Made by a program: the position numbers and the translations under genes | NCBI GenBank assembly: GCA_048213135.1 | Contig: PS015020.1 | Coordinates: 268,430-332,429, forward strand | Source: Reclinomonas americana ATCC 50394 | Taxonomy: Eukaryota | Reading direction: 5' to 3' | Length of the DNA stretch: 64,000 nucleotides | Shown here: positions 2,242-64,000 of the stretch, in pieces | How positions within the stretch are numbered: the stretch's first letter is position 1 | How the letters are laid out: every line of letters begins with the position of its first letter | The notes under the pieces: model-generated | Told to the model about the DNA's origin: nothing | What the model saw: the letters and a program-made list of their open reading frames with translations, nothing else | Database searches by the model: none

Positions 2242-3312
2242 TCACGCCAAGATGCTGAGCTTCTTCGCGCGGAACAACAGCACCTTCTCCAGAAACTCCA
2301 CGTGCTTCTCACACATGAAGCGGTAGTACCCTGCGTGGTCGCCATCCTGATCTGCCTGGAGCACTGCATGGTAGCGCCAACGATCGGTGGCCGGGATGAT
2401 GAGCCCGTACGAGCCGAGCACCAACTGCAGGAGAAGCCGCCCTGTGCGCCCGTTTCCGTCGAGGAAGGGGTGAATGTGCAGGAAATGGGCGTGAACGCGG
2501 GTGGCGTGGATGGTCGGCTCCGTCGCACGGGTGTCGTTGCTGTCGCGGATCCACGAGAGGAAGCGGTGCATTATCGCCGGCACCTCGTGTGGGTACGGTC
2601 GCACGGTGGCCGAGCCGCGAACCTTGACCGGTACGCGTCGGAACACCGTGGCCGGCAAGTGGCGGGCGGAGGTGCTGGCATCATCGTCACGTGCCTCGCC
2701 ACCCATCACTCGCTGGTGTATGCCGACGAGGTGGTCGGCCGTCAGGGTGCGTAGCCGTCCTTCCATTGCACGAGTGAACTCATGTGCCGACAGTGCACGC
2801 AGTCCGTCGATCAGATCCTTGGCCGGTGTCACCGTAGCCACTTCAGACACCACCGTGCGCCACGCTATGTCCATCCTGTAGCCGGCGCGGTCCAGAATCT
2901 CGGCAAGTCGCTCCACGTCGTTGGTGGTGAGCTGGCAGCCCTCCAAGTTGCACGAGTGTTGGACGCTCGCCACTCGATACGCCGCATCGAATTGGTTTCG
3001 CTCTGCAGTGGTGAATGGTGGCAGCTGTGTTCCGAGTTCGTGCCGCAGCTCCCCGATGCGCAGCAGCAGGTCTCGTGGCCACGTGTGCGAGTCGTCCGCA
3101 CCGTCGAAGAGCGGATAATGCGCCAGCCAGAGACGGCCTGTCACTGCAACTTGCAACGCTGCGTCTTCGGGGAGGCCCTGGAGGGGGGCGTAAATGGTGC
3201 GAAGGCGATGCAGTCGCAGCGCCTCAGCAGTGCTCACGGCCTCGGTTGACCACCACCGCACGGCGGGGAGAGGAGGAGCTCGAGGAAGTCGTCTGCAAGA
3301 GGCCGAGAACAT
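2242..3312 (-). CDS. Fic-domain protein (putative AMPylase), intronless, with N-terminal inhibitory motif and mitochondrial-type leader
   Basis: 356-aa ORF with canonical HPFLDGNGRTGR Fic motif, an (S/T)xxxE(G/N) motif SCNLEG upstream, and an Arg/Ser-rich acid-free N-terminus (MFSASCRRLPRAPPLPAVRWWS). Confidence 0.92.
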   Translation of the reverse strand: MFSASCRRLPRAPPLPAVRWWSTEAVSTAEALRLHRLRTIYAPLQGLPEDAALQVAVTGRLWLAHYPLFDGADDSHTWPRDLLLRIGELRHELGTQLPPFTTAERNQFDAAYRVASVQHSCNLEGCQLTTNDVERLAEILDRAGYRMDIAWRTVVSEVATVTPAKDLIDGLRALSAHEFTRAMEGRLRTLTADHLVGIHQRVMGGEARDDDASTSARHLPATVFRRVPVKVRGSATVRPYPHEVPAIMHRFLSWIRDSNDTRATEPTIHATRVHAHFLHIHPFLDGNGRTGRLLLQLVLGSYGLIIPATDRWRYHAVLQADQDGDHAGYYRFMCEKHVEFLEKVLLFRAKKLSILA

Positions 3313-4075
3313 GATGTGAGTGTGTGTGATTGAGAGAGATGGAGGTGGAGGTGGAGATGGAGAGAGTTAAAGCTTCAGTGATAGCGAGTGTGGAGAGTCC
3401 AACGCGATCGACAGAACTCTCTTATTTCCAATAAATGCTCATGAGCGAGAAGAGCCAGCAGAAGAAAGTGGATGGCGATGATTCAGATGATGCAGCAGTG
3501 AGAATGGTACGTCGGGTGCTGAGTGGGCAGGGCAGCAGAACGTGGGGGAACAGTTGGTTTATGTAAATAATTTGTGTTGCGCGCGATCTTCACCTCGCAC
3601 TATTAACACGTGCTACTTCCGTTGTTGCTCTTCGCTGCGTGCGCGCAGTCGACTCCGTTGGTGAGTGTGAGTGTTGACCTACTTTGCTTTTTTTCATTCT
3701 TTGTTGTTTCTCACGTGCACTCATCACGCTGCGCCTCACATGTATTGACATCCATTCCACACTGGCTATGGTCTCGTACGAATAGCCGCAGTCGGCCTCA
3801 GCAGCACTCCCATCGCCAGATGCATCTACGCGGTCCCAGGTGAGTGTGCGTGTGAGAAGATCTCTTGCTTGTGCACTGGAGCAACTTGGTTATCACTCAC
3901 CGCTCGCATGCTTCACTGGTGCCTGCGCAGGAACCGCGACCAGTGGATCCCATGGTCAGTACCGTGTATGATCATCTTCTTGGTTTCTGTGTAAATGAGC
4001 TTCTACACAACACCTTGCATTCCTTTTTCTTTTTTCGCAGCGTGATCCCTGCTGCGGACTTTTGGTGAGTCGGAG

Positions 4076-5286
4076 ATGTCATGGAAGTCTGATCATGCGA
4101 ATGTGCAATTGCTGAAGCTAACTAGAACTCAGCTTGAGAAGGAAGCGGAGATCCGTGAGTTGCGGGATCAGCGACGCGAGCTACAGCTGGCCGTCGAAGC
4201 ACACGANNNNNNNNNNNNNNNNNNNNNNNNNNNNNNNNNNNNNNNNNNNNNNNNNNNNNNNNNNNNNNNNNNNNNNNNNNNNNNNNNNNNNNNNNNNNNN
4301 NNNNNNNNNNNNNNNNNNNNNNNNNNNNNNNNNNNNNNNNNNNNNNNNNNNNNNNNNNNNNNNNNNNNNNNNNNNNNNNNNNNNNNNNNNNNNNNNNNNN
4401 NNNNNNNNNNNNNNNNNNNNNNNNNNNNNNNNNNNNNNNNNNNNNNNNNNNNNNNNNNNNNNNNNNNNNNNNNNNNNNNNNNNNNNNNNNNNNNNNNNNN
4501 NNNNNNNNNNNNNNNNNNNNNNNNNNNNNNNNNNNNNNNNNNNNNNNNNNNNNNNNNNNNNNNNNNNNNNNNNNNNNNNNNNNNNNNNNNNNNNNNNNNN
4601 NNNNNNNNNNNNNNNNNNNNNNNNNNNNNNNNNNNNNNNNNNNNNNNNNNNNNNNNNNNNNNNNNNNNNNNNNNNNNNNNNNNNNNNNNNNNNNNNNNNN
4701 NNNNNNNNNNNNNNNNNNNNNNNNNNNNNNNNNNNNNNNNNNNNNNNNNNNNNNNNNNNNNNNNNNNNNNNNNNNNNNNNNNNNNNNNNNNNNNNNNNNN
4801 NNNNNNNNNNNNNNNNNNNNNNNNNNNNNNNNNNNNNNNNNNNNNNNNNNNNNNNNNNNNNNNNNNNNNNNNNNNNNNNNNNNNNNNNNNNNNNNNNNNN
4901 NNNNNNNNNNNNNNNNNNNNNNNNNNNNNNNNNNNNNNNACTTCAGTCTTTCTCTGTTTGTCATCGTGTTCTTTGTTACAGCAGCAGCCGTCGTCGGTGC
5001 TGCGTGTGAATAGTGGATTGATGGGAGGAAACAAGGGAAGGGAAAGAGAGGGAAAGGGAAACCCGGATTCTAATTCCTTGGTGATACACAATCTCTCTCT
5101 CTCCCTCTCCCTCTCCCTCGCTGTCTCTCTCTCTCCGTCTCTCTCTCACCTTCCTTCCCACAGCCCACGGTGCGACGATCGACGGGCGCGGAGAATGCCG
5201 AGTTGCGACGACAGCAGGCGTTGCTGGCGGCCGCCTCGAGTGTGACGCAGTCGATGAGTTTTACGGCCATGGCGGAGCGTATTGCT
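4076..5286 (+). CDS. Coiled-coil-like exons upstream of Raptor (separate gene fragment or Raptor N-terminal extension), interrupted by a gap
   Basis: QLEKEAEIRELRDQRRELQLAVEAH before the gap; AENAELRRQQALLAAASSVTQSMSFTAMAERIA after an AG acceptor at ~5163, followed by a GTTGCG donor at 5287. Confidence 0.4.
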
Positions 5287-5355: not shown

Positions 5356-11758
<6,403 letters not shown>

Positions 11759-12623: not shown

Positions 12624-12836
12624 AGGACGTACGTTAGTTTGTTTCGTTGTTGTTTGTTTGTTTGTTTGTTTGTTGTTTGTTTGTTTGTTGTTGTTGTGTG
12701 TGTGTCGTGTCGTTNNNNNNNNNNNNNNNNNNNNACGTACGACGTACGAGACGACGTACGACGTAGAGACGAGAGTACGTACGTACGTACGACGACGTAC
12801 GTACGAGTAGTAGAGAGAGAGAGAGAGAGAGAGGAG

Positions 12837-12872
<36 letters not shown>

Positions 12873-15752
12873 GAGGAGAGAGAGAGAGAGAGAAGGGAGG
12901 GAGGGAGGGAGAGAGGAAGGGAGAAGGGATGGGAGAGTGAAGACAAGGGGAAGAGAGAGAGAGAAGATCAAGGGAGCACGTATTGTTCTTGTTCTTGTTG
13001 TTGTTGTTGTTCTTGTTGTTGTTCTTGTTGTTGTTGCTGGTGCTGCGTTGTTGTTGTTGGTGTTGTCGCCGTCGTCATTGTTGTTTTGCAGCTTGGGGGC
13101 CTTTGACTGCATTCCGTGGTGATTGCATGCGGAGATTGAGAAGAAGCATAGACTTGGCGATGATGACCCTTCGTGACTCGTTTCGTCTCCCTGATAACAG
13201 GGTCATCTGGGCACGTTGCAACTGAGTGCTGCGGCGCTCGGCAACATGTGGACTGGCGGTCTGTTGCCATTCTTTGCATGTTTCGTTGGATGATGGCTGG
13301 CGCTGAGTCTTTCGTGTGCAGGTGTCGCGGCGTTCACCATGGGATTCTCGTTTGCGATTGATACGCTGGTGAGTGGGAGATCAGGGGCAGAGGCAAGACA
13401 AAAGCTTCGTTGCCACTTCTCCGGTGGTCTGTGTGTATGTTTGCCTGCTTTGATTTGTACTCGAGCTCTGTTGTCGAGAGGCGAGCTGTCAGCTTTGTTT
13501 CGTCTCTCCATGTTCCCTCTGCTTGTGTTTGCCTGTCTTGCCTGTCTGCTGTCTGCGGTGACCATAGCTTTCTTCCATTCTCGAAAGACAGGCAGACATG
13601 AGTTGTCAGCTTGTATCTTCCCCTGTTGCCACTCCGCTTCTGTCTGCCTGTCTGCCTGCTTGCGTTCCTCTCTCTCTCTCTCTCTGATCATTTGTGAACG
13701 ATTGTCTTTCATTTTTGAGTGAGGCAGAGATGAGCTGGCTGTTTGTACCTGCCTCGCGTTTTCCAACCTGCGTGCCCTGTCACTCACCCTTTTTTCCCCT
13801 TCTCCTCCTCCTTCTCTTTCTTCGCCGAGCAGGTCAGTCAGGCGGTCGGCGCTGGCAACCAAAAACTCGTGGACCAAACACTATACCGCGCCTACTTGAC
13901 GCTGACAATATTATCGCTGCTGACGGCTCCGTTGTGGTGGTACGTTTGAGCTTACACGCATGACTTGACTCTCCTGTCTCGTGTTCACTCTCTCCCTCCC
14001 CTGAAGGTTTGCCGGTCCCATTCTGTCGGTGCTGAACCAGCCGGCCGATATTCTCGAGCTGACACAAGAGTTCACAAGGTTGGTCGAGTCGTTTCGGTTG
14101 TTGCTGCTGCTCCGCTCCTCTGACTCACCACCCCCCGCCAGATATCTCATCCCCGGCATTGTTCCCTGGTTCCTGTACATCGCGATGCAAAAATGGCTGG
14201 CCAACCAGGGCAGCGTGTATCCGAGCCTCGTTGCGTTTTCACACCCCTTGTTCTCGCCCTTGTGACATCCACTCATCGATGGTGATGGCGTGCAGGTGGT
14301 CGCCCTCATCGCCAACGTCTTCAATGTTGCGCTCCCATCGCCTCTCCGTCTCGAAAGTTTCCCGTTCCACTCACATCTCCTCACCGCGCAGGTGATTTTC
14401 AACTGGGTCTTCATCTACGGCGTCGCCGGTTGGGGCGGTTTCGGATTCATTGGCGCCCCCATTGCCACCTCCTGCAGTCGCGCCGTGCTGGCCATCACCA
14501 TGTACATTTTCGTGCGCCTGCGACAGCGGCAAGCGCACCGACGCATGGGAGCCACATTCTGCAGCAGCATGACACGCAAGGGTCTCATCGAGTTCGTCAA
14601 GCTCGGCATCCCCGGCGGCTTCCAGCTGCTTCTCGAGGGTTGGGGATTTGAGGTGCGTGCAGGAAAAGAGTCGTCTTTGTCATCGTTGCTCTGACACATC
14701 TCACAGTCGACGACATTTGTGGCTGGCCTGTTTGGTTCCACGGTGCTGGCCTCTCACACGATTGTGCTTAACATTGGCGCCGTCATCTGGATGACATGCC
14801 TCGGCTTGAGGTGAGTACTATCAGCGCCCTTTTGTAAATGAGAGTGCGGCATGTGAGTGACATTGTGTGCGCAGCATTGCCACGGGCATTCGAGTCGGCA
14901 CGCAACTCGGCGCCGGTTCTGCCAAGGGCGCCAAGGAAACGGGCCTGCTGGGCATGGTGGTGGCCGCAGGTTGCGTCTCGCTGCTGTCTCTTCGCCCAGC
15001 CTCTCTCCCCCGCTCATCTCACTCGTCTCCTCGACACAGTGGTCATGAGCATCATGCTGCTTGTTCTCCCCTTCCGCGGCCTCCTGTTCCGTGCCTTCAC
15101 CGACGACGACACGGTGATTGAGCTGGCGTCGAAGCTCATGATCCTCTGCTCGCTCTTCCTGGTGTTCGACGCGGTGCGTACCGATCGCCCACCGCATCGC
15201 TCCACACGAAGACCGCTGAATGTCATCCATCCCTGCAGGTGTTTACTGTCGGCGGCGGCGTGCTGCGCGGCATGGGCAAGCAGGCGGTGGGAGGCGCGTT
15301 GGTGTTGGTGGCGTTTTATGGCGTCAGTCTGCCGATTGGCCTGCTCTTGACGTTTGTTGCCGACTGGGGAGTCATTGGCGTGTGGAGCGGTCTCACCATT
15401 GGTCTGTTGGTGTGCGCGCTGCTGATGTTGGTTATGCTGCTGCGTGGCATCAACTGGGAAAATGTGAGTGTGGAGAGAGGGAAGAAGTGGGTGAAGCGAG
15501 GGAGGCAAGATGCTTAATATATGAGCGCAGGAGGTGGAAAAGGCAAAGGAACGCACTCGATCGGACGACCACCACCCTCACCTTGTGGACATTGAGATGG
15601 CGACACACGTAATGGCCGTGGCCGATCACAGTGAGGAGCAGCCGCATGTCACGACCGTCGATGAGGAGGGACTGTTGCAGCACATGGACAGCGATGGTGA
15701 GGGGCAGGCGGAGGAGGAGGAGCTAGAAGAGCAAAAGGGGAGCAGAATATGA
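12218..15752 (+). CDS. MATE family efflux transporter, multi-exon
   Basis: KLAVPIVLSNVALFLMGVVDMMMV, IFNWVFIYG...GFIGAPIATS, FVKLGIPGGFQLLLEGWGFE, IATGIRVGTQLGAG, GGVLRGMGKQ, GVWSGLTIG. Confidence 0.93.
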
Positions 15753-16298
15753 GTGAAACGGCCTCATTGCCTCAAGAGACGGATGGAGTAGGGGTCGACA
15801 ATGATTGAGAAAGGCAGGAGAGAGCGCTGTGTGTGTGAGAGAGAGAGAGAGAGTAGAGAAAGACAGGTCAGGTGTTGTAACATGAGGCAGAGTGAAGTAG
15901 CCTGTCGGAAGAAAACCGCAGTGAGCCAAGAAGAAGGAGAAGTTCACCATAACGATACTTGTATGGGAAGACAGAAGGCATGAAGTCGGTGTGCCACGAG
16001 CGAACAATTGCTGCAATTCGAAGTCACTGGCAGGAAAGCTGTGTGAACGAAGAAGAAGGGGGAGTTAGCAAGAGAAGAGACTTGAGCGGAGAGAGTGAGA
16101 GAGAAAGGAGAAGGCGAAGTCTGGCATCACTTTACTTGTGACCATCATGTGAAAGACGGAAGACAGGGTCGTGGTCGATGACATTGGCCACGAGGCTGCA
16201 CCGATGGTGAGTGATCTCCTTTTTCACAGCCGCTCCAAAAAATATGCAAAACATTATTTGTCCTTGCCCGACCCAGCTACAGTGAATTCCTGAAACTC

Positions 16299-17940
16299 AT
16301 GCTGCGGACACCAAACGTGTTTCTCGGAGGCCACAACCGGCACGCCACACGGTGCTTTTCATCTGGAGCAAGCAAGGCTGAGGGCTTCTGTGAGTGTGTA
16401 CATGTAAACATCTCGTTCGTGTGTGTGGCTGATTCTCTGGACATCACAGTCCTCACTGGAAGACTCATGACGCGATGGCCTCTGGTGCTGGCCATAGGTG
16501 TGCCTGGAATTGTTTTTGCACTTGCACTGAATGAGCAAAAGAAGAGGGTGGTAAGTCACCGCTCGCGTGTATACGTATTCGTAGACACTGCGCCAGTGTG
16601 TACTGACGTTGCTGCCCGGCCGGTCGCCCCTCACCATAGTGCGACAACCCCTGTTCGCTCACAGAGCTCGATTTCGACGTTTATAAGTCGCGCCGCTACC
16701 ACGTGGGGCCACAGTCTCTGTTCCATCGCGAAGTGGTCCACAAGCTGGCCCACTCGCTGGCAGCGTCGGTGCCGCTGCCTCCACTCGTGCGCACCTTCTC
16801 GCCACTGTTCGATAAGCCCGCGGAGCTTTTACCTTCTCTGCACGTGCCTGCTTTCTCTCAATACGCGCTCGACTTGAGGGTGAAGCAGATCGCTGACATG
16901 CTGCTAGCCAGTCTCGATAACAAGTCGTTTTCTCTGCAACAAGTCTGCGATCGCGAAGGGCTCGCCCTTCATGATGTTGCCCCACACTCGATACACCTGC
17001 TGGAGCATACCAAGCTGGTGAGTTATCGTTGGCTGTCGCGATCCTCTAGAGCTCTTGCCTCGAGCTCTGCTTCGAATTCACTGGACGGTGCTGCAGCATC
17101 GCCAGATTGCGTCAGTCGTTGACGACTGTGCCAAGTCCTTCGTCGTCGGACAGCGCGTGCCGGGTCAGCAGCCCGAGGCAGCCAAGCCAGACCAGCAGCG
17201 CGTGGTGGCCGAACCCGACCGGCGGCACGTGCTTGTGTCTGCCAGTGCCCCACCTTCAGTACACCTGGTGGCTGGGTACGAATGCGGCCGAAAACTTGGC
17301 AAGCTGTGTAGCATCAGCTTCTGGAACCCTCTGTTCCACCAGTCGGGCGTGCAGCACATCATCTGGCCGGTCAACTTCAACATGGAAGCATCCAAACCAA
17401 CTCACGTGCACGCACCGTTCCTGGTGGCGCAGGAGAAGCCGTCGGCGCCGCACTTGGTGCTGTTCTTACAAGCTGGAGGCGCTCGCGAGCTGCACCCTGC
17501 TCAACAAGAGGTGATCCGCAAGCGACTTGGCCAGGTACGCGCGCCTGCTTCAGCTTGCAATTGGAAATGCAGGTCCAGTATCAGTATGAGGTGTTCACTC
17601 AGTGACGCAGCCCCCCTATGACGCCAAGTCTGGGGAGATATCCGTGCTGAACGTTGTCATTCGAGGTGGCGCTGGCGCTTACTTGACTGAGGCCGATGCG
17701 CCTCAGGTCATGGAACAACTGCGCATGTTTGTCCGGTCGCTAGTCGAACTACACGGCGAGTCCAAGAAGACTGTTTCTATCGTGTCGGCCGCGCCGGCCT
17801 TTGTGACCTTCTCGCTCGGATTTCTGTTGGGCGAGGAGAGCCGCCGCCTTCCGCCGCATGTGTTGCTGTTCGATGGCCGTCCCTCTGAAACGTTTTTTGT
17901 GCGCGAGCTGATATCGATGCAATCAGATCTAGATGTCTGA
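16299..17940 (+). CDS. Transit-peptide + single TM + C-terminal SAVED-like domain protein, 5 exons
   Basis: Exons ~16299-16389, 16450-16550, 16640-17017, 17097-17534, 17611-17940 join in frame through GT-AG introns. The C-terminal ~230 aa carry both SAVED half-motifs: HVLVSASAPPSVHLVAGY and TVSIVSAAPAFVTFSLGFLLG...HVLLFD. Confidence 0.72.
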
Positions 17941-18383: not shown

Positions 18384-20444
18384 ATGCGCATCTCTCTCCT
18401 CCTCGCCTTCCTTGTCCTCGCCGCCACCACCCTGGTGTGCGTGCGTGCCGACCTGATCGGCATCGAGGGCCGCTGCGTGCCCGACGACATCATCTGCACC
18501 TCGCTGCCTCTGATGCTGTGGGTGAGTGAGAAGTGAGCGACATGTGTGCGCCATGTCTCACACACACTTTTGTGCAGCACTTTGATGGTGTCGAGCGCAA
18601 GGACATTGTGCAAGTCGTCGTTGGTCGCCCTCCGCACGGTCACGCACACTCTCTCTGTCACACACACACGCGCGTGACCACTTGCTCACTCTTCTTCTTC
18701 TTCTCACACAGATCAACTGCAGCTCAAGCGGTTCCACACGTATGACTCTCACCGCAACTACTACTTCCTCGCGATGTTGCAAGGCGGAGGAGTGCCTGAT
18801 GTTGCGTGCATTGACAGGATATCGATCACATTTATGATGAATTTCTCCGTGTTTTCTTGACATAAAGTGCGACTTCTTTAGTTGACGTTGTACACGGTCG
18901 ATGTGATGAACAAGAAGCTGTTGTACACGTACTCGGTCAACGATACGGTGTTGCAGTTGGACCTCTTTGCGGGCATGCAGTTTGTTGCGTTTTTTGTTAT
19001 TGCTCGATTGGCTTGTTTTTGTGTTGTCTCGTGCCTCTCTCGCGCTCTTTCGCTGGGCTAGTGTGTGAGTGTGTTTGTGTCTTGTGCGCTGACTGTATCT
19101 CTTTGCAGCATGAGGCCTCTTGCTGTGGCTTTGCTGTTCTTTCTTGTCTCTCCCTCCTCTCTCTCTCTCTCTGCCTCTCTCTGCCTCTCTCTCACTTTCC
19201 GTCTTCGTCTCTGTTACTGTCTTGTACACTTGCTGCAACTGCTCCTCATTTCTCCGAGCTGAAAGGAGACGTGCTTTTCCTCGTTCTCGTTTGCACACTC
19301 ACACTTCCTTGCTCTCTGTCTTCTGTCTTTCTCTGTCTTGTACGCTCGCCACAACTAGTCTTCATTTTTCCGAGCTGGGTTTTTAATGTGCGCTACTCTT
19401 ACTCTTTCACACACTCTGTTTCTCTCTGTTATTCCTCTTTGCCGTTGCTCAGCGTTTCTCTGCCTGATGCACTTGCTGCAAATGTATTTCTACATGCATC
19501 ATGCAAGCTCTCTTCTCACTTCCTCTTCTCCCGCCCCCTCCCCCTCCCCCTCTCCCTCCCCTCTCCCCTTCGCGCCTCCCCCACAGGACCAGCAAACGGG
19601 CACGCTGTTCGGCGTGTTCGGCTCGCACCTCGCCGCCCTCAACTACACCAACGGCGCCGTGTCTGACCTCGGCGCCATGTGGGGCGACAACTACCGCCTG
19701 TTCCCGCAGGTGTCGTCGTTCGACTCGGCCACCGGTCGCATCTTTGTGTCGGTGAACGACGAGTCCAATGACCAGAAGAAGATCGCCACGTACAACACGC
19801 GCACGCACCAGTTCACGCTGTCGAATGAGGTGCTGCACGAGGGCCTCGTCAAGAACGAGATTCAGTACATGGTTTGTTGGTGCAGATGTTCTCTTGCGTG
19901 TGAGTGTGTGTGTGATGGAGTGTGGTGTCTCACCGCCAACTGCAGCTGTGGGACGGCAGCAGCTTGGTCGGCCTTGCGGACAGGTGCCGCATCTTGTTCT
20001 GTGGTGTGTGTTGTGCGTTGTGCTCACACGATCTGCCAATGCAGCTTCGCTTACGCCTCCATTTTCGAGATCACCTCGCCCGAGCAGAGTTGCGTGTCGC
20101 TCTCCGCTCTCTCCCTTCTTTGTCCTCGCTCTCATCACTCTCCTTTCCCCATCGCAGGCCAGTGGAAGTTCCTGATGACCTCGCGCGAGGCGGCCATGAT
20201 GACCTACGACGTGCTCGACCGCGTCAAGTCGTACGGCGACCTGATCGCGTGGGAGGAGCGCGACGGCCACACCGGCCTCCTCGTCAACCTCGTCGACAAG
20301 TCCGACCCCGACAACCCAACCACCGTCATTACTCGCTTCGACCTCAAGCGCAAGTTCTTCTACGACACCGACACGCTCTCGGAGGACGCCACCAGCTACG
20401 TCTACATCTCCCCAGCCACAGGCGACCGCATCGGTCGCGTCTAA
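18384..20444 (+). CDS. Secreted protein of unknown function, probably beta-propeller-like, multi-exon
   Basis: Signal peptide MRISLLLAFLVLAATTLVCVRA; coding-like exons rich in short beta-strand patterns (STYDSHRNYYF, VSSFDSATGRIFV); ends TAA at 20444. Confidence 0.65.
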
Positions 20445-27090: not shown

Positions 27091-27812
27091 NNNNNNNNNN
27101 NNNNNNNNNNNNNNNNNNNNNNNNNNNNNNNNNNNNNNNNNNNNNNNNNNNNNNNNNNNNNNNNNNNNNNNNNNNNNNNNNNNNNNNNNNNNNNNNNNNN
27201 NNNNNNNNNNNNNNNNNNNNNNNNNNNNNNNNNNNNNNNNNNNNNNNNNNNNNNNNNNNNNNNNNNNNNNNNNNNNNNNNNNNNNNNNNNNNNNNNNNNN
27301 NNNNNNNNNNNNNNNNNNNNNNNNNNNNNNNNNNNNNNNNNNNNNNNNNNNNNNNNNNNNNNNNNNNNNNNNNNNNNNNNNNNNNNNNNNNNNNNNNNNN
27401 NNNNNNNNNNNNNNNNNNNNNNNNNNNNNNNNNNNNNNNNNNNNNNNNNNNNNNNNNNNNNNNNNNNNNNNNNNNNNNNNNNNNNNNNNNNNNNNNNNNN
27501 NNNNNNNNNNNNNNNNNNNNNNNNNNNNNNNNNNNNNNNNNNNNNNNNNNNNNNNNNNNNNNNNNNNNNNNNNNNNNNNNNNNNNNNNNNNNNNNNNNNN
27601 NNNNNNNNNNNNNNNNNNNNNNNNNNNNNNNNNNNNNNNNNNNNNNNNNNNNNNNNNNNNNNNNNNNNNNNNNNNNNNNNNNNNNNNNNNNNNNNNNNNN
27701 AGTCGTAGGTAGGAGGGAAGGGAAGGTAGGAGGTAACGTAGTACTACTACGTCGACGTACGTACGTACTCTACTCGTTCGTCTACTACTACTAGTACTCG
27801 TCGTCGTCGTTC

Positions 27813-32425: not shown

Positions 32426-35300
32426 TCATTGTAATTGCCGCCGTGAATGTACAACCACGCGACAATCCTTGGCGCCACTGGCTAATGCCGTGCCGTCGTC
32501 GTTCCATGCCACAGACGTCACGGCGGCGACATGATGATCGGAGAGCACGGCCAGGCAGCGGCCCGTGTCGACGTCCCACAAACGGACAGTGGCGTCGAAG
32601 CTGGCAGTGGCCAACACGCCAAAGTGCGGGTGGAAGGCCACATCGCGCACGGATTGTGTGTGACCGGTGAGCACGTGCAGACATTGCTGTGTGCGCAGGT
32701 CCCACAGACGGGCTGTCGTGTCGTGCGAGGCGGTGGCGAGCAAGTGCCCGTGTCGAGGGTGGAAGGCGACGCTGAAGAGCACATCCAGTGGTGCGCCGTC
32801 GGCCGAACTCAGTGTACACACTGGAACCGACGGCGCTGCACGAATGTCGAACACTTGCGAGGTGCCGTCACGCGAGGCCGATGCTAATCTCTGACTTCCG
32901 TCGCCGATGCCGCTGAATGCCACCCGGTACACCCAGTCCGTGTGACCGGTCAGCGTCGCGACTCGTCGACCGCCGTCGACATCCCACAACGAGCACGTGC
33001 GATCAACCGACGCCGACGCCAGCATGTTGGCTGCCAGAAGCATGCCAGAAGCGATGAGAGCGTGAGGGAGACATACATACAGTGGAGGCGATGGCGCACC
33101 ATTGCTGGGATTCGAGGTGACGCCAAACACACCGCCCTGGTGGCCTTTCAGCGACTGCGTTCGCCGGTACCACCCACTTGCAGCATCCTCGCTCCACACA
33201 TCGATGGAGCTCTCAAAAACGCCACCCACCACCGCCAGGCTGACTGGTGCTGGTCGAACCCAGGCCACTCCCTCCACCGTGCCGAACCCGGTGCGAATCA
33301 ACTGCTTCGGCTCCTCGTCGCGCCACAACACCAGAGCCTTGTCATCGCCACCAGAAGCGAGCATGCCGTTGTGTGCTCCCGTGCCAAACGCTAAGCACGC
33401 AACGCCGTCCGTGTGTCTTTCCAGTGCGACAATTTGATGCTGTCGATGGCCTTCTGCGTGCAAGTGAAAGTTGGTATGAGTCGTCTGCGATAGGAGAGTG
33501 CACAGCGTGAAGCAGCATGGCGGAACCTGTTAGCCACGATACTGGCGACTCCTTGGGCAGTGCAATAACTGCAGTGGGCCAAGAAAATAATGTCAGTGGG
33601 CATGCGTCGACGAAACCAGGGAGAACATCGTGACGCAACATGGCACGTCATCTGTGGCCAGTGAGTCCCACGCGCCAAAGTCGCTGGTCACAAACGGTGA
33701 CCCAAATTCCTCAACTGTGCGCACACAGACATACAGGCAGTGTGAGAGACACCATCGACGACAACAGAGGACTTCACGTGCAGACGTACATCCGTCGCTG
33801 CCAGTCGAACTATAGGGGGTGCCTGGGAAACCACACGATGAGTTGGAGACAAAGCGAGAGGCCATGGAGGAGAAGCTGCGCACCTGGCAGACTTCCGTTG
33901 CGCCGCCGAGCGCCGTGGGCTCCAAGAGAGTCTATCACAAAAAATGTCATTTCACAGAACCTCAAGGGCGCGGCACGGCACAAGAACGCAACTGGAGCCC
34001 ATGGTACTGGCGCGTGACGAGCGCGTACTCCCCGCACGCATCGGGGGCAGTGTAGGTGGTTGATGCACGGCCAGAGCGTCGACACTGACCGCATCGTTGA
34101 AAACGGACGAGCGTTTCCGCCGACCCACAGCACGTGGTGATGTTTGTGGAGCCTCCACTGTGTTTGTGATCAAAGAGTGAGCGCACCACCATCGATCGAG
34201 CACAGGGGAGATTGAACACACAACTGAGGCTGTGTGACGACGACGACGCCGACGAAGACGAGAGAGCCAGAGAGCACGCGCTGTCTGGCGAGCTCCTTCC
34301 GCGACCACCGTCACGACCTCCGCCTCGCAGTGACTCCACCGGCAGGTGGAGCGGCGGTGGCGACGCAAACAACGAACAATCGTCAGACCGATCGCTCATC
34401 ATGGTGGGCGACGGTCCATCGTCCGCCCCCACATCGCTCTCGAGCACACCCGGGAACGACGTCGCCAACTGCGACGACTCGGCCGACCACAGATTGTGAA
34501 ACAGGCGTCGCCGTCCGTGCAGCTTGACATCTGCGCTCTCCCCGTGCTCAGCACCTGACTGCTCCACGCACGAGCAAACGCACACGCACCATCGCCACGA
34601 AAGAAGAACGGCCACTTGGGTGGCGACGAGTGACGCAAATGCCGCTGATACCAGCCCACATCACTCCTTACCCCTCCTCCCGCACCCATCGAGGCCGCTG
34701 CACCGGCGCTTCCACCAGTCGCCGGCGAGCGCAGACGCAGTGAGGAGACATCAGAGAGCGGAGTGACCACTGTCGACGCCACATCGGGGCTTCCCACCAC
34801 CACAGGCGAGCCTCCGCTGACCATCAGTCGCGGAGCACTGAGTGAGAACTGCGAAGGGCTGCCAGGAGGAGGAACATCGCGAACTCGTGCTGCTGCAGTG
34901 GCCGAGGCGTACAGACTGGCTGCAGGAGCTGTGTGCGAAATCGGAGTCAGCAATCACTGTCTCTATCTGCTCACTCACTCTCACTCACTCACTCTGCTCA
35001 CTCTCCCTCTCTCTCTCTCTCACACACACACACACGCACACACTCACACACTCGCTACGTCACTCATGATCACTGTTGCTCTCATCATGACACGACTCTG
35101 TGTCTGACTCTCTCTCTCTCTCTCACTCAACTTGGCACACTCGCCCGCACGCGCACATCCTCATCGCCTGCATCTGGGTCAAAGAAGAAGTACCGCCAGA
35201 GGGCCACCACCAGAGGCACACTCAGCAGAATCGCGCCCACACTGCGCTCAGAGGGAAGCCTCGAGATAGGTCGCCATACACTCTCAAGAAAGCCAAGCAT
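32426..35300 (-). CDS. WD40-repeat protein, probably with N-terminal TM helix and Ser-rich linker, multi-exon
   Basis: WD40 repeats at 32426-33455 (GHTDWVYRVAFS, LATASHDTTARLWD, GHTQSVRDVAFHP). Upstream exons splice in frame (...DDVP|FIALPKESPVSWLT|EGHRQH...) toward a putative start MLGFLES... with TM VGAILLSVPLVVALW. WD40 part is secure; 5' linkage is less so. Confidence 0.7.
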
Positions 35301-35958: not shown

Positions 35959-38900
35959 CTCTCTCACTGTTGTCTGCAGAGTGGTGTGCCAAACCGTTCT
36001 CGAGTGGATCCTCTCCGAGTCTCTCTGTGTGCTTCCCACCTCCTTGGCCTCTGTCAGTGAGCTGGATGAGATTGCGCGTCGCCTGACTCTGTGGTTGCTT
36101 CCGCCTGGCACGAGTGTGGCTGCGGAGCAACCGGTGCCTGTGACTATCAAGAGTGAGCCTGGTGGGCGGAAGCAGGCGGCAGGTGTGAGTGTGCCGAGTA
36201 GCGTGTCGCGACAGGTGCCAGTCGTTCCGCCACAGGTGTCACTGGCCGCGCAGCGAATTCTGCATGCGGTGGGTGGTCTTCTTCTCCTTCTTCCTCCTCC
36301 TCCCTCCTCCTCCTCCTCCCCTTCCCCCTCCCCTCCCTCCCTCCGTACCTCGTCCTCACTCCCTCGCGTCGTACCGTCGTCCGTCCGTACCGTCCGTCGT
36401 CCGTCGTCGTCGTACTACGTACGTANNNNNNNNNNNNNNNNNNNNCTCTCCTCCTCGTGTCTCGTCGTCGTCTCCTACCCCCCCCTTCCCTTCCTTTATT
36501 CCTTCTTTCCTCCTTACTTCTCCTGTCCTTGCTCCTCCTCCCCTTCCTCCTTCACCCTTGCGCCTTCGTTCATCTGTGCTCCCTTCTCCATTCTCCTCCC
36601 TTCTCCTCCCTTGCTTCATTCCTCATTCATCCTTGCCCCACCCTCTCCTTCCTGCCCTTATCCTCCCTTCCTCCTTCCTCCCTCCCTTCGTCTCTCACCC
36701 TTTCCACGCACAGTTCCCTGGCGATGGCGACGACTTGGCGGTCCTCGTCTCGCGTGTTCTTGTCTTGTCGGCCGATGTGCTGGGGCTCATCCGCGCCGAG
36801 GCTGTGCTGTTGCCACCACTGCCTCCGTTGCCTGTGGTGGATGAGATGATGACTGCTTTGGGTGTGGACGAAGCGATGGAGGACAGTGGCACTGCGTCGC
36901 CGGCGTTTGCGATGCCGCCACCGCCACTGCTGCCACTGCCGTTGCCTCCGCCTCCACCGCCCGCACTGGCGGCGCTGTCTGCTGTGTCGTCGACGTCGCT
37001 GGAGTCCATGGCAGTCGATGTGAAGAGCGAGGAGCCGTTGTTGTTGCCGCCGTCTGCATCGTCGTCGTCGCTCCTGTCGGAGACGCCGACCGACGCCGTG
37101 GCCGCCACCGCATCCTTGCGGCGCAGTTCTCGTCGTGCTGCCACCACTGGGCACAAGCGATTCACGCAGACCGAGAGCGGTGGCTTTGCGTACGACGAGG
37201 ACGAGGAGGAGCTGGACGAGGAGCTGTTGCCGGAGGATGACGAGTACGAGGACGAGGAGGACATGGTGATTCCACGCAGTAGCAGCGGCGCGGGTGTTCC
37301 CGCCGCAGGTGGGTCCTCTTCGTCGCTGCCGGGCGTGGCAAGCGACGATAGCGACGATGACTACGAGGACGAGTCGCTGTCGCAGATGATGGCTCGCGTG
37401 CGACCGAAACGCAGTCGTTCCAAGAAGACGGGAGCGACGGCAGCAGCAGCAGCAGCAGCAGCAACAACGGGTTCTGCTTCTGCCGTCACGACGGCAGCGA
37501 AGCCTACCACTCGCTCGTCGAGACGCGCGGCGGCCTCCTCGAAGAACGCGAAACCGACTGCGAACGCCGGGTCGGCCAAGAAGAAGAACAGCATCGGCAA
37601 CATCTCTCCGCAGGTGGATGCCAAGAGCGGGGCGTCTCGTCGCAGCGGGAGTGGCGCTGCCGCTGCAGCAGCAGCGGCGGCAGCAGCTGCGGCCGCCACT
37701 GTGCCCATGGTCGACAGAGGCAACTGCCCGTTCCTCCCGGGATCGGACTTGGCGCACGCGTGGGAACGCATTCGCATGGTGCTGGTGGTGGAGCACAATC
37801 GTGTGGTGCAGTCGGTGCGTGTGCTCGACTCCCATGATGTCATCACCGCGCTGTTCTGGTTTGTGTAACCTTATGTCGCAGGGCGGCTGGCCGAGACCGA
37901 CCGACGATCGGTTCGAGCTCCTTGACTGCGACACAGTGTCGGACCGAGTGTGGCCTGCCGCCGTCGGCGTCATCCAGTCGCTGGTCACCTGTGGGTGGCT
38001 GTCATTTGCGGTCAGTAGATGCGTGATACCCAGGCCATGAAGGAGCAGTTGTGCTGATTCGCGAGTGTGCCTTTTTTCCAGCATGCTGCACGCTCGATGC
38101 TCAGCGCACCGCGTGGTGTCGACTTTATGGTGCACTTTGTGCGCACGTATCCAGCCAGCTGCGAAGTGGTGAGTCGCACTATTTTCCCATGTCACTGCAT
38201 TCCCGCACGCTTGTGTTTCTGAATAATTGTCTACAGCTCGCCCGCAACACTGTCCAGCTGCTCACCGAGCCTCGCCTCACCAATCTCCTCACGGAGCGAT
38301 CGTTTCGTTCGGGCCCTCAATGCTTTGCTGACGAAAGAGACCACTCATGTTTCTTTGCAGTGGCGACCTCATTCTACAACTGGCCACCGCCTCACCCACC
38401 ACGGCTGCCCTCTGTCGCGATGCCTGTCTCGAGTATGACGTCGATGTGCGACTGACGTTGGCGGTCGCTGCCGTTGGCCCGCCCGCCCAGTTCACCACCT
38501 TTCTCGCCTCGCTGCTGGACCGGCGTGTGGATCTGTTCTGGCGACGCTTTCAACACACGTCGGAGCGACAGAGTCTCCAACGGCGCTGGCTCGACGCGTG
38601 GAATGCGCTTGTTGCGTACCTCTTCTGGACGTGAGGAAAGCCTTGAATGATTGATACTTACTCGCACGCCTCACCACACGCAGTCAGTGCAAGCCGGCGC
38701 CGACTCCACGTTGTCGCCCTCGCGCCCAGTAGGCATCCTGTCACCGGAACGTGGCGGTGCTGCGCGTGTGAGTGTGCTGCCGCATTTGTGCAACTTGTTG
38801 CGAGTGCACATGTACTTGGTGTCGGCGCATCGCGTTGATGTCCTCTCCGCGGCGGCGGACTTGTCGCGAGTGCTCGACGCGTGTGCGGAGCTTGCCGTGT

Positions 38901-41989: not shown

Positions 41990-45712
<3,723 letters not shown>

Positions 45713-45955
45713 TTTGTGAGAGGAGAATGAGTGGGTGTCCCATGTCGGAGTTGAAAACTCTTGACGTCGACGAGGAGAACGGTTTGACAAATGATGCCTG
45801 TGCAGAGCTGTGTTGCTGGTAAGCCCTCAAGCCACACGTTGTGGGACACCCCCCTGCTGATCAGCTCGAGTCGACCATCTCCGACCATTATATTGACCAA
45901 TGTCCTGTGCCACGCACTCACACTATCATCGAGCTCGAGCTCGACACACTGCACC

Positions 45956-48701
<2,746 letters not shown>

Positions 48702-55000: not shown

Positions 55001-58000
55001 CTGCGGAGAGCAACTGGAAGGGTGCGGTAACGGCAGGCGCAGCGGCACTCGGCCGCCGCGTGTCAATCAACGACTGCTGGCCTTCAAGGCGAGTGGCGGC
55101 CAGCATGCGCAGCGCGCGGACATCGTCAATCATCAGGTGAGCCGAGCTGCGGAGAACAGCGAGGAGGGTGGAGAGACACACGCGCTGGAATCGAGTGACC
55201 GTCTCGACGAGCTGCAATACACGCACAAAAGGGACGGTCAGACGAACGAGTGGAGCAAGAAGGAGGAGACAGAAAAATGAGACGCAACTCGCTTGGGAGG
55301 CGCATTGGCCATTCGGTCGGCCGCCGGCCCCACGCCAGCAGTACTGCGCCACACGCCACCACGGCGATGCGCAGACGCCACCGTACCATCGGCATTGCGG
55401 ATGATTGGTGAGGAGTACACACGTGAGGTGGGAGAATCAGAGTCCGCGGCCGCCAAATCATCGCGTGTCGGCGACGCAACACCGCCGCTGTTGCTGGAGC
55501 CACCGACGGCCGTGGTGGCCGGTGGAGAGTCACTCCGGCTGCTGGAACCGTCACCCGACTGAATTGCCACGACTGCCGACACGTGACCGGGTCGATCGCG
55601 GAAGAACGAACTGAGCAACGAAGTCGGCTGCGTGGAACCAGCAGTGGTCGCCGCCATGGCAGCCGCCAGACCGACCCTCGATCCAGCTATGCACGGGAAT
55701 CAGCAATGCGACAAGGTGGGAAGAGGGGGAGTACACGGTGGCCGCAACTCTGCCCGCTGGCATCACTTTGCGGCATCGCCAGCGTGCTGGAAAACGACAA
55801 TTGACGAGCGCGGACCACACTTGACGGCAGAGACAGAGCTTGCGCGGGAGAAGAGTATCGCGAGAGCTGGAACAGAGGAAGAAGGGAAGGAGTGGGATGA
55901 GAGACAATTAGACATGGAAGGGCAACAAGAATAAGGCCACGCACATCATCGGAGCCACTGACAGGTGGAAGGGAAGAGTCGCTGCCACTGCCGCCGGCAC
56001 TGCCATCCGACACGGCGGTAACCGGATTGAGTTCACGCTTGGGAAGCACAGCCGCGGCCACCTCCGACATGAGACGAAGAATCAAGTTGAATGCCACATG
56101 CACGTACGCCAGCGCCTGGCGGAACGACACGTCGGCGGTCACGGTGGCGGAAAGGTCGGCCGACTTGATGAGATCCAGCATGGCATCTTGGCACTGGTCG
56201 AGAGCGGCCTCGAGCACTCGTCCACCACGCTTTGCGCCAGTGCTGTGCATGTGCGAAATGGTTAGCTGTCGAGACCACCACAAGGCGGAGGATCAACAAG
56301 AGGTGCAAGTGACGCAACGAGCTCTCGAGCGTGGAGGATACGAGCGAGCAGCTGCGGAGGAGTCGCAGCATGGCGGCGTGCGGCGGCCACACGGAGCTCA
56401 CCTGCTTGGTGCGACACGTGAACCCATCACGCGCTCCACCCATGGTCGGCATTCTGCACGGTGCGCCATGAGAAATCCATGGCGAAAGCGCATGAAACTC
56501 GGGTGAGGCGACGCAACTCGCCACGTGCGCCGAAATCGAGGTAGCCCGACACCAATCGTGTGTACACTGCGAGGTGATGCTCACCGTCCGGAATCATGCC
56601 GTCCTTCTCGATACCCAGGAACGAGAAGCCGAGTAATTGCTGCACGCGATAAACAATCGTCAGATGGCGAGCACAAAGAAAAAACTAGCAGTGTATGCAC
56701 CTCGGTGGGCTGCTCCAGCGCCGACTGATCCGGCACCAGTTGACGCTTGGTCGACACCGAGTAGAACAAGAAAAGCAAGTGATGCTTGCTCTCGCCCAGC
56801 AACGGCACTGCCATGCGGAACTCGTCACTCAACTGTGGCGTGGCCGTGTTGTACCGGATCTGTGTTTGACCAAAGCGTGACGTGGCCGGACTGCCGTGCT
56901 TGGTGTGCACGTTGCAGAGTACACCAGGCAGATTGCACAGGTCGGTGAGTGTGGCGTCGACCCCGATGGCACCGTGCGGCAGCGCGTCGACTTCGCGGTA
57001 CATGACCTGTGGGGTGTGAGGAATGAGACACGCGGAAACGAACCAAACACACATGCAATTACGCACCCTTACAAACACAGGTCGTGTACCAATGGTGGGC
57101 AGCCGAGCAGCTAGCGGGTACACATACAAGTCGTGCACAAACGAGGTGTACGGGGTCGCTGGTGCCACCGTGTAGAATTCACGGACATGCACAAATGCGC
57201 GAGCCACACGCTCGTGTCGGGAGTACTTGCGCGACCGTGCCACCACGTCCTGCTCCGAGGCGCTGGTCGCCCCGGAAGGTGATCCCGTGGGCGACTCGAG
57301 TGGTCCCGCGGCGTTGGCCTGTATTAGAGACGAGGAGGAGGAGGATGGGCGAACTAATAAAAGCCGTCGACCTGCCTCACGCAATACGCACCACAAACTG
57401 GACAGACGACGACAGATTGAACATGGGCGCAGAAGTAAGCATGGCAGTCGACATATTGGTGGACACCGGCAGAGTCCTGGTGAGCGACGCCGAGCGGCGT
57501 GATCGCACCAAGAGCAACGAGTCGGTCGGCGATCGCACGTCGTCGCCATCGTCATCATCTTCCACCGGCGCCGCTGCATCCTGATCGTTCGGCAACGGCG
57601 TGATTTGCAGCAGCAGCTCACCCGGAATCACTCGCAGTTGCTGACGAGTGGCCTCGGCCGACACAATGTAGTCGCACACATCAAACGGACGACTGGCGTC
57701 CCACGCTGGGATCTCGAAGAATGGTGTCGCGCGCACCACCCCCGACGCCAGCCGCAGGCCGCGAGGCACATCCGGAGCGGGCATGACTGGTGTCGTGTAC
57801 ATGGAGGATGATTGTCCGCTGTGTCGTCATCGGCGAGCGTCAGAAAGGTGGACGGGGGAGAGTGAGAGAATGCTCCACACTCACCGGTGCACGTCAAATA
57901 GCCGCACGGCTGTCCACGCAAATGGTTCGCGGTACGAGCCAAAGAGACCGCACACTTCGCGCTTCTTTAGTCGCACCAGGCTGCATGCAAATGAATGATT

Positions 58001-63492: not shown

Positions 63493-64000
63493 NNNNNNNN
63501 NNNNNNNNNNNNNNNNNNNNNNNNNNNNNNNNNNNNNNNNNNNNNNNNNNNNNNNNNNNNNNNNNNNNNNNNNNNNNNNNNNNNNNNNNNNNNNNNNNNN
63601 NNNNNNNNNNNNNNNNNNNNNNNNNNNNNNNNNNNGCTCACCCGCGAACCGCACAGACTCCTCGCGTCGTGCTCACATTCATTGCGGACCGCGCGCGGAA
63701 CGACGAGGCCGTGCAGCAGCAGTTGTGGCGCTGCATTGAAATGTCACGCGGTCAAGACGAGCCGGCCGTCATCACGGCGGCGGCGAGTGCGGCGGCGGTG
63801 TTGTGCGTCGCACGTGTGCCGTTCTCGGGTCGCGACTTGAGTGGCGTGCGCCTGCGCAATGCCGATCTGCGCGACATGATTGCGCAGCGCGCGGTGTTCC
63901 GTGGCGCCGACCTGCGAGACGCTGTGCTGGAGGAGGCGTACTGCCGCGAAGCCGATTTTTCACAATGCCAGTTGGCAAACGCGCGCCTGACGAGCACCCC
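60958..64000 (+). CDS. N-lipidated NACHT-type STAND NTPase followed by pentapeptide repeats (NLR-like); continues beyond the window
   Basis: MGCASS start; Walker A GWSGGGKS; Walker B VVILDGYDE; PLLLNML; FLHRSMLEYFAA; FSGRDLSGVRLRNADLRD...FRGADLRDAVL pentapeptide repeats. Confidence 0.85.

Follow-up and report, generated by a model that had tools for sequence, protein, structure and literature searches.

A Proposed Eukaryotic SAVED Sensor and Its Nearest Described Counterparts

SAVED domains are two-lobed, CARF-related sensors that bind cyclic oligonucleotides in effectors of the bacterial systems in which cyclic oligonucleotides serve as signals against phages (CBASS) and of type III CRISPR systems. 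The present work deals with a gene at positions 16299-17940 (plus strand) of a 64,000-nucleotide stretch of Reclinomonas americana ATCC 50394 (GenBank assembly GCA_048213135.1, contig PS015020.1, positions 268,430 to 332,429 of the forward strand), which was analyzed as a whole and is referred to hereafter as the window. The gene would encode a single-pass membrane protein of 445 amino acid residues, the last ~215 of which are proposed to form a highly divergent SAVED homologue in an effector-type layout, gated by a nucleotide. Such a protein would be an unusual case of anti-phage signaling equipment taken up by a eukaryote. Confidence and doubt are evenly balanced for this reading taken as a whole; homology of the C-terminal domain to SAVED is, judged from sequence, highly probable.

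The nearest precedent is Cap14, a bacterial CBASS effector in which, according to the excerpted report on it, a transmembrane module is followed by a C-terminal SAVED domain and a chloride channel gated by 2',3'-cGAMP is formed (PMC10402079). The likeness lies in the order of the parts, with the membrane segment N-terminal and SAVED C-terminal. Unlike Cap14, the protein described here has a linker of ~165 residues between helix and sensor, and it is encoded by a eukaryotic gene with four introns, an organelle-type leader, and no adjoining cyclase among the 25 commonest families of the window. It is not a member of the Cap14 family and, by analogy, may work like Cap14. In Cap4, Cap5, TIR-SAVED, SAVED-CHAT, and SAVED-Lon, the N-terminal output is an enzyme (an HNH/endonuclease, a TIR, or a protease), whereas here this position is occupied by a membrane helix and a linker without family match, and the sequence identity in structural alignments of the last exon (exon 5) is 10-19%. 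Cap4 and Cap5 are soluble nuclease-SAVED effectors of CBASS, while SAVED-Lon and SAVED-CHAT belong to type III CRISPR. CARF effectors anchored in a membrane also occur in type III CRISPR (10.1101/2025.11.13.688252), Cam1 being an example. Such effectors join a small anchor to a nucleotide sensor of the CARF superfamily, as the protein described here would, with ligand binding leading to membrane depolarization, and among the systems compared they come closest in mechanism to a protein that has so few helices; they are prokaryotic and have a single dimerizing CARF, in contrast to the fused two-lobe SAVED proposed here.

Among eukaryotic proteins, STING provides a functional analogy only, being a receptor that is tethered to a membrane and recognizes a nucleotide second messenger: its fold and family are unrelated, it has four membrane helices and resides in the endoplasmic reticulum (ER)/Golgi, and no similarity to STING appeared in any search made here. 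A precedent for the entry of CBASS-type parts into eukaryotes by horizontal transfer is provided by eSMODS, bacterial-type nucleotidyltransferases resembling cGAS and DncV (CD-NTases) reported from Amoebozoa, choanoflagellates, Ancyromonadida, and a sponge (Culbertson and Levin, PMC10732462, in excerpt). These enzymes are synthases and candidate ligand producers, whereas the protein described here would stand on the sensor side. In the excerpted text, the eukaryotic branches described are the synthases (cGAS/cGLR, OAS, and eSMODS) and STING, no receptor for eSMODS is named, and the authors call for functional work on eSMODS; the main text is free of the term "SAVED" (0 occurrences) (PMC10732462). 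A review on the conservation of immune modules across life contains no mention of SAVED or CARF (PMC11249213). Our literature search found no description of a eukaryotic SAVED protein, an earlier mention being possible in Burroughs et al. 2015 and in Burroughs and Aravind 2020. What would be new here is a putative SAVED-type sensor in a eukaryotic, spliced, single-helix, and leader-bearing format.

Probable Homology of the C-Terminal Domain to SAVED

The modeled gene is composed of the following parts, and the cores of the two halves of the SAVED-like domain lie in the last two exons.

16299-16389, plus strand: exon 1, with the start codon and the basic, acid-free leader; residues 1-30 and the first base of codon 31
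16390-16449, plus strand: intron 1, 60 nt, GTGAGT..CAG
16450-16550, plus strand: exon 2, carrying the single predicted membrane helix (residues 40-58, about 16476-16532)
16551-16639, plus strand: intron 2, 89 nt, GTAAGT..TAG; a TACTGAC sequence resembling a branch point lies inside
16640-17017, plus strand: exon 3, linker region of 126 residues without family match
17018-17096, plus strand: intron 3, 79 nt, GTGAGT..CAG
17097-17534, plus strand: exon 4, 146 residues; end of the linker and the SAVED-like domain's first half, which is weakly supported
17226-17276, plus strand: motif 1, the first-half core (strand-AP-helix-G), in exon 4, placed by alignment with bacterial first halves and by the hmmsearch alignment
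17535-17610, plus strand: intron 4, 76 nt, GTACGC..CAG, frame-shifting and inside the SAVED-like domain
17611-17940, plus strand: exon 5, 109 residues; second, well-supported half of the SAVED-like domain and the stop codon
17770-17820, plus strand: motif 2, the second-half core (strand-AAP-helix-G), in exon 5, placed by alignment with 41 bacterial second halves

One line of evidence for the SAVED assignment comes from profiles built from bacterial domains. Genomes with matches to PF18145 were sampled (1 of 5, 11 of 301, 4 of 251, 6 of 301, 6 of 201, and 29 of 201), yielding 59 bacterial SAVED loci, 58 of which matched a first profile; removal of the fragments L114, L115, L123, and L132 left 54 sequences, which were thinned at 70% identity to 41. 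Exon 5 scored 19.8 bits with a hidden Markov model (HMM) of 15 SAVED sequences, the best of 2000 shuffled versions reaching 6.0, and it remained between 17.5 and 19.8 bits across all our SAVED profiles. With the 41-sequence HMM, the spliced product of exons 4 and 5 obtained 20.1 bits (best of 2000 shuffles, 5.2) in two colinear pieces, with profile positions 36-68 falling on residues 34-66 of exon 4, that is, on motif 1, and positions 146-214 on motif 2 in exon 5. In hhalign, the same product aligned to the 41-sequence alignment with a probability of 90.9% (E 1.2e-6) over 174 columns, covering residues 36-240 of the 255 in the query, the alignment passing colinearly over intron 4, while the best of 150 shuffles reached 2.5%; exon 5 alone gave 91.7%. 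SAVED is placed at the C-terminal end, as it would be here, in 55 of the 58 sampled bacterial proteins. As a side observation, SAVED is commoner in the phylum of one sampled genome (G002, the Archangium genome with locus L059), where it was found in 29 of 201 genomes, often with two to three copies per genome, than in the other four sampled phyla, where it was found in from 4 of 251 to 11 of 301 genomes.

The residues that define both halves point in the same direction. Both strand-(A)P-helix-G motifs named in the initial annotation align with the matching motifs of bacterial SAVED domains, with the near-invariant proline and glycine kept. In motif 2, P62 of exon 5 falls in a column conserved at 90% or more and G70 in an invariant column among the 41 bacterial second halves, and in motif 1 the glycine at residue 60 of exon 4 occupies a column with at least 90% glycine among bacterial SAVED domains.

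In the library searches, exon 4 and exon 5 were scored separately, the domain being split by intron 4. Exon 5 matched the SAVED families of Pfam (PF18145, E 0.18, residues 10-70 on profile positions 102-161 of 190) and NCBIfam (NF033611, E 0.094) as well as the SAVED_peptidaseM48 effector of PADLOC (E 0.0048). Moreover, all 30 of its 30 feature neighbors in the ESM Atlas were SAVED clusters (score 0.90, 212 of 256 features, recognition 2394). An AlphaFold2 (AF2) model of exon 5, with the 41 bacterial second halves in the input, had a predicted local distance difference test value (pLDDT) of 70.9 and a helix-strand-helix-strand-strand order. In a structural search independent of Foldseek over 48,161 chains, ranks 1-9 for this model were nine SAVED proteins, each aligned over its C-terminal lobe, with SAVED-CHAT, SAVED-Lon, and CARF proteins lower. 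Foldseek returned no match to the same model at E<=0.001, its top rows being phosphoribosyltransferases and the second nucleotide-binding domain (NBD2) of ClpB. A predicted complex of the exon 4 and exon 5 products, supplied as two pieces, scored 0.03 against a mark of 0.34, which speaks neither for nor against the assignment.

Several results weigh against this reading. Taken alone, exon 5 lies below curated thresholds, with 12 bits against the Pfam cut-off of 26.2 and 12.2 bits against the NCBIfam cut-off of 33. Exon 4 alone scores 5.5 bits, a value equalled by 3 of 3000 shuffles (p about 0.001), and 4.6% in hhalign; it has no match in Pfam, PADLOC, or NCBIfam (E<=10) or in the ESM Atlas, it returned only a chance p300 row from PDB sequences, and it does not retain the S-x-S strand frequent among bacterial first halves. 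Its AF2 model was unusable, which leaves the first lobe structurally unsupported and, at the same time, indicates that the modeling procedure does not force a SAVED result. The best PDB sequence matches of exon 5 are NBD2 segments of the ClpB family (E 0.024-0.82, with ClpB1 at the top in phmmer), and in NCBIfam the matches of exon 5 to ClpK (E 0.069) and ClpB (E 0.16) about equal that to SAVED. Cap14 has two to three helices in its Saf-2TM module, whereas the protein described here has one helix and no N-terminal family match. Neither an orthologue nor a paralogue was found in the protein collections, the metagenome and viral scans, or the window, and no SMODS, Mab-21, or OAS family occurs among the 25 commonest of the 53 families matched by 148 ORFs (open reading frames) of the window, where, as initially stated, no nucleotide cyclase is visible at that depth.

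On balance, the sequence comparisons support SAVED homology chiefly in the second half of the domain and weakly in the first. The initial annotation had taken the entire C-terminal domain for SAVED, and this stands for the second lobe, on which our HMM, hhalign, the ESM Atlas, and motif 2 agree, while the first lobe reaches only the p value given above. The profile comparison and the structural comparison that it had proposed likewise turned out in part: the spliced domain is recognized by our bacterial SAVED profiles, with the single exons under curated cut-offs, and SAVED proteins lead the structural ranking for exon 5, with no counterpart in Foldseek at E<=0.001 and no usable model for exon 4.

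Searches for nearer relatives remained without result. Nothing scored in word-index searches for exon 4 (longer and near lengths) or exon 5 (longer), and exon 4 had no match among viral contigs. A phmmer search of exon 5 against 1.84 billion representatives returned two rows at E<=0.001, with short matches in multiple stretches of proteins of 4023 and 785 residues, which are taken as probably compositional. A phage ORF of 123 residues, identical on L162-L164 (L162:1655-2026), was considered as a relative and rejected: it has an 8-residue word in common with exon 5 and scores -2.8 bits against the SAVED profile. Of the three phage-like contigs on which it sits, one is a scaffold from an ocean metagenome and two come from IMG/VR.

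Alternative Explanations for the Domain

The protein could be a true descendant of SAVED or CARF that no longer senses nucleotides and, having no immune role, serves a housekeeping membrane protein (possibly a mitochondrial one) as a structural or oligomerization module. Such an outcome is considered unlikely. In its favor, the best pairwise score to any of the 54 bacterial SAVED domains is only 8.5 bits, which denotes extreme divergence, the first lobe is barely recognizable and lacks the S-x-S strand, and the gene looks single-copy among housekeeping neighbors, with no paralogue in the window and no adjacent cyclase among the 25 commonest families. However, the motif residues defining both lobes are kept, the order of effector followed by SAVED is preserved, and the missing neighbor cyclase says little because eukaryotic genes are not organized in operons.

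A domain that is not SAVED at all, but a beta-alpha-beta unit of generic Rossmann-like type or else a degenerate remnant of AAA+/ClpB type with convergent resemblance to SAVED, appears improbable. The PDB, NCBIfam, and Foldseek matches of exon 5 to ClpB described above would agree with it, as would the fact that no curated SAVED cut-off is reached. These matches were set against an AAA_2/ClpB control profile of 20 sequences, built in the same way as the SAVED profile, which gave 9.2 bits and 6.8% in hhalign for exons 4 and 5, compared with 20.1 bits and 90.9% for SAVED; across the controls, scores ranged over 9.2-11.3 bits, confined to a patch of 38 residues, and over 6.8-13.9% in hhalign. The two profiles are unrelated to each other (0.1%). 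Furthermore, no Walker A lysine and no G-x-x-G-x-G-K-[ST] are present in the translations of exon 4 or exon 5, the 30 ESM Atlas neighbors are all SAVED, and SAVED proteins hold the first nine places among 48,161 structural matches. Membership in the NBD2 of AAA+ Clp/Hsp100 proteins was ruled out as the leading interpretation given the short patch, the low hhalign values, and the absent Walker A motif.

Gene Model and Splicing

The five exons, bounded by GT..AG introns, were joined by script into an in-frame sequence of 1338 nt, equivalent to 445 codons and a stop codon. Thus, the splicing proposed in the initial annotation could be rebuilt, every peptide stretch quoted there is present in the translation, and the description as an intron-containing eukaryotic gene agrees with four GT..AG introns and with neighbors matching Raptor_N, WD40, DOCK-C2, INTS2, and RasGEF. 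The GC content at codon positions 1, 2, and 3 (0.67, 0.415, and 0.67) has a coding-like periodicity, which was used alone, as codon-usage scoring trained on one WD40 ORF separated the reading frames poorly. Furthermore, the SAVED similarity continues colinearly over intron 4, which changes the frame, and this would not be expected unless intron 4 were really removed. From the sequence, the gene model is more than a product of chance, and a real gene with intron 4 spliced as modeled is very probable.

That the model is partly wrong, or that the locus is a pseudogene or an unexpressed relic with the leader, helix, and SAVED-like domain perhaps belonging to different proteins, is hardly probable. 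In its favor, no predicted protein of the locus occurs in the large protein collections searched, exons 1-3 are without homology support, intron 1 could be kept without loss of the frame, and another mini-exon may lie upstream as an alternative; against it, the four introns have strong canonical signals, the only choices of acceptor that stay in frame give one uninterrupted frame of 445 codons, the homology passes over intron 4, and the GC periodicity is coding-like.

Two variants of the 5' end were observed. Intron 1 contains no in-frame stop, and its retention would add 20 residues just before the membrane helix, leaving the protein intact. Upstream of the modeled start lies a speculative additional exon:

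16178-16206, plus strand: possible extra 5' mini-exon, in which an ATG at 16178 precedes GTGAGT at 16207, with the CAG at 16280-16282 as acceptor

Removal of the putative intron 16207-16282 would add 15 residues in frame before the ATG at 16299. Alternatively, an upstream ORF of a single codon would arise in this region from the ATG directly before the donor and the TGA that directly follows the acceptor.

Leader, Membrane Helix, and Linker

The basic and acid-free leader initially described was found in the translation, where residues 1-27 include four K/R, two H, and six S/T, the first acidic residue is residue 28, and an R-x-F|S-S stretch occupies residues 18-22. A single N-terminal membrane helix, also initially described, is predicted from a hydropathy maximum of 1.93 at residues 40-58 (Kyte-Doolittle, 19-residue window). 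A second helix was considered at residues 390-411 and rejected, this segment being the core strand-helix of the C-terminal domain, with the same patch in bacterial SAVED domains. No Pfam family matched 16299-16550 at E<=0.1, and at E<=10 only a chance Defensin_5 row appeared (E 0.14). The linker (residues ~59-225, ~165 residues) is encoded by exon 3 and the start of exon 4; searches with exon 3 in Pfam, PADLOC, and NCBIfam at E<=10 gave 0 family matches, and its score against our SAVED profile was -2.8 bits.

Mitochondrial presequences are typically basic, acid-free, hydroxylated leaders with a processing-peptidase motif, and may be followed by a hydrophobic sorting helix. By composition only, the leader described here fits such a presequence followed by a stop-transfer helix. 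A mitochondrial location is, on this basis, suggested tentatively and held with somewhat more doubt than belief, and an ER signal-anchor in place of a mitochondrial presequence is possible.

Proposed Origin and Function

The gene most likely derives from a horizontally acquired bacterial SAVED effector gene, and intron gain and divergence would have followed, because no sampled bacterial SAVED domain is close. The action deemed most probable for such a membrane-tethered SAVED protein would be as follows. A nucleotide-derived second messenger would bind the two-lobed SAVED-like domain and drive oligomerization, as in SAVED effectors, and the tethered membrane helices would then perturb their own membrane or assemble a signaling platform there. 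The N-terminal membrane segment is considered the output because the effector module takes the N-terminal position in bacterial SAVED proteins. Whether the protein still acts as a ligand-gated sensor is a close call, leaning slightly toward the negative. An immune or cell-death role is conceivable.

A bolder form of this proposal sees the protein as a descendant of CBASS-type membrane-SAVED effectors that was re-aimed at the mitochondrion, serves a eukaryotic cyclase, and acts in abortive infection. Among eukaryotic compartments, only mitochondria have retained an energized membrane of bacterial type. The leader and stop-transfer helix would anchor the protein in the inner membrane with SAVED facing the intermembrane space, which is open to small cytosolic nucleotides. 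Upon infection or stress, a CD-NTase of eSMODS or OAS type encoded elsewhere in the genome would produce a cyclic oligonucleotide, whose binding would lead to oligomerization, depolarization of the membrane, and killing or arrest of the cell. Taken with all its steps, this scenario is a long shot.

Genomic Surroundings

The window is clearly eukaryotic nuclear DNA, with a GC content of 54.5%. Bacterial contamination was ruled out because the gene has introns and eukaryotic neighbors. Rfam and tRNA scans of the window returned nothing. Seven N runs, corresponding to scaffold gaps and totaling 3347 N, are located at 1027-1973, 4207-4939, 12715-12734, 27091-27700, 36426-36445, 43376-44249, and 63493-63635, one of which interrupts the succinyl-CoA-ligase gene. 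The other features recognized are listed below; INTS2 and RasGEF domains were also matched among the scanned frames.

2245-3366, minus strand: open frame with a Fic/DOC domain (E 5e-17), a family better known from bacteria
5719-6645, plus strand: Raptor_N, by family match
14838-15750, plus strand: upstream neighbor, apparently the terminal 3' part of a gene for a MATE-type transporter (MatE E 1.2e-4, slightly short of the cut-off)
18384 onward, plus strand: downstream neighbor with a signal-peptide-like hydrophobic N-terminus; no family in the frames tested, 18866-20441
32429-33529, minus strand: WD40 protein, by family match
41993-44736, minus strand: succinyl-CoA-ligase-type Ligase_CoA and ATP-grasp_2, by family match
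45788-48701, plus strand: WD40 frame followed by a protein-kinase (Pkinase) frame, by family match
56584-57627, minus strand: DOCK-C2, by family match

The spacer between the MATE-type gene and the SAVED-like gene is rich in GA/CA repeats.

Significance

In bacterial anti-phage systems, SAVED sensors are known to receive alarm signals in the form of cyclic oligonucleotides. If ligand binding has been lost in the protein described here, it would still be a clean example of a defense module domesticated after horizontal transfer. If the leader is mitochondrial, the protein would connect immunity based on nucleotide second messengers with cell death based on an organelle, and, should the bolder mitochondrial proposal hold, it would reveal a eukaryotic abortive-infection pathway made of CBASS parts. 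More generally, if the SAVED reading is true, the receiver side of CBASS would also have crossed into eukaryotes, and the protein would be a concrete candidate receptor for the bacterial-type cyclases of eukaryotes, including the orphan eSMODS.

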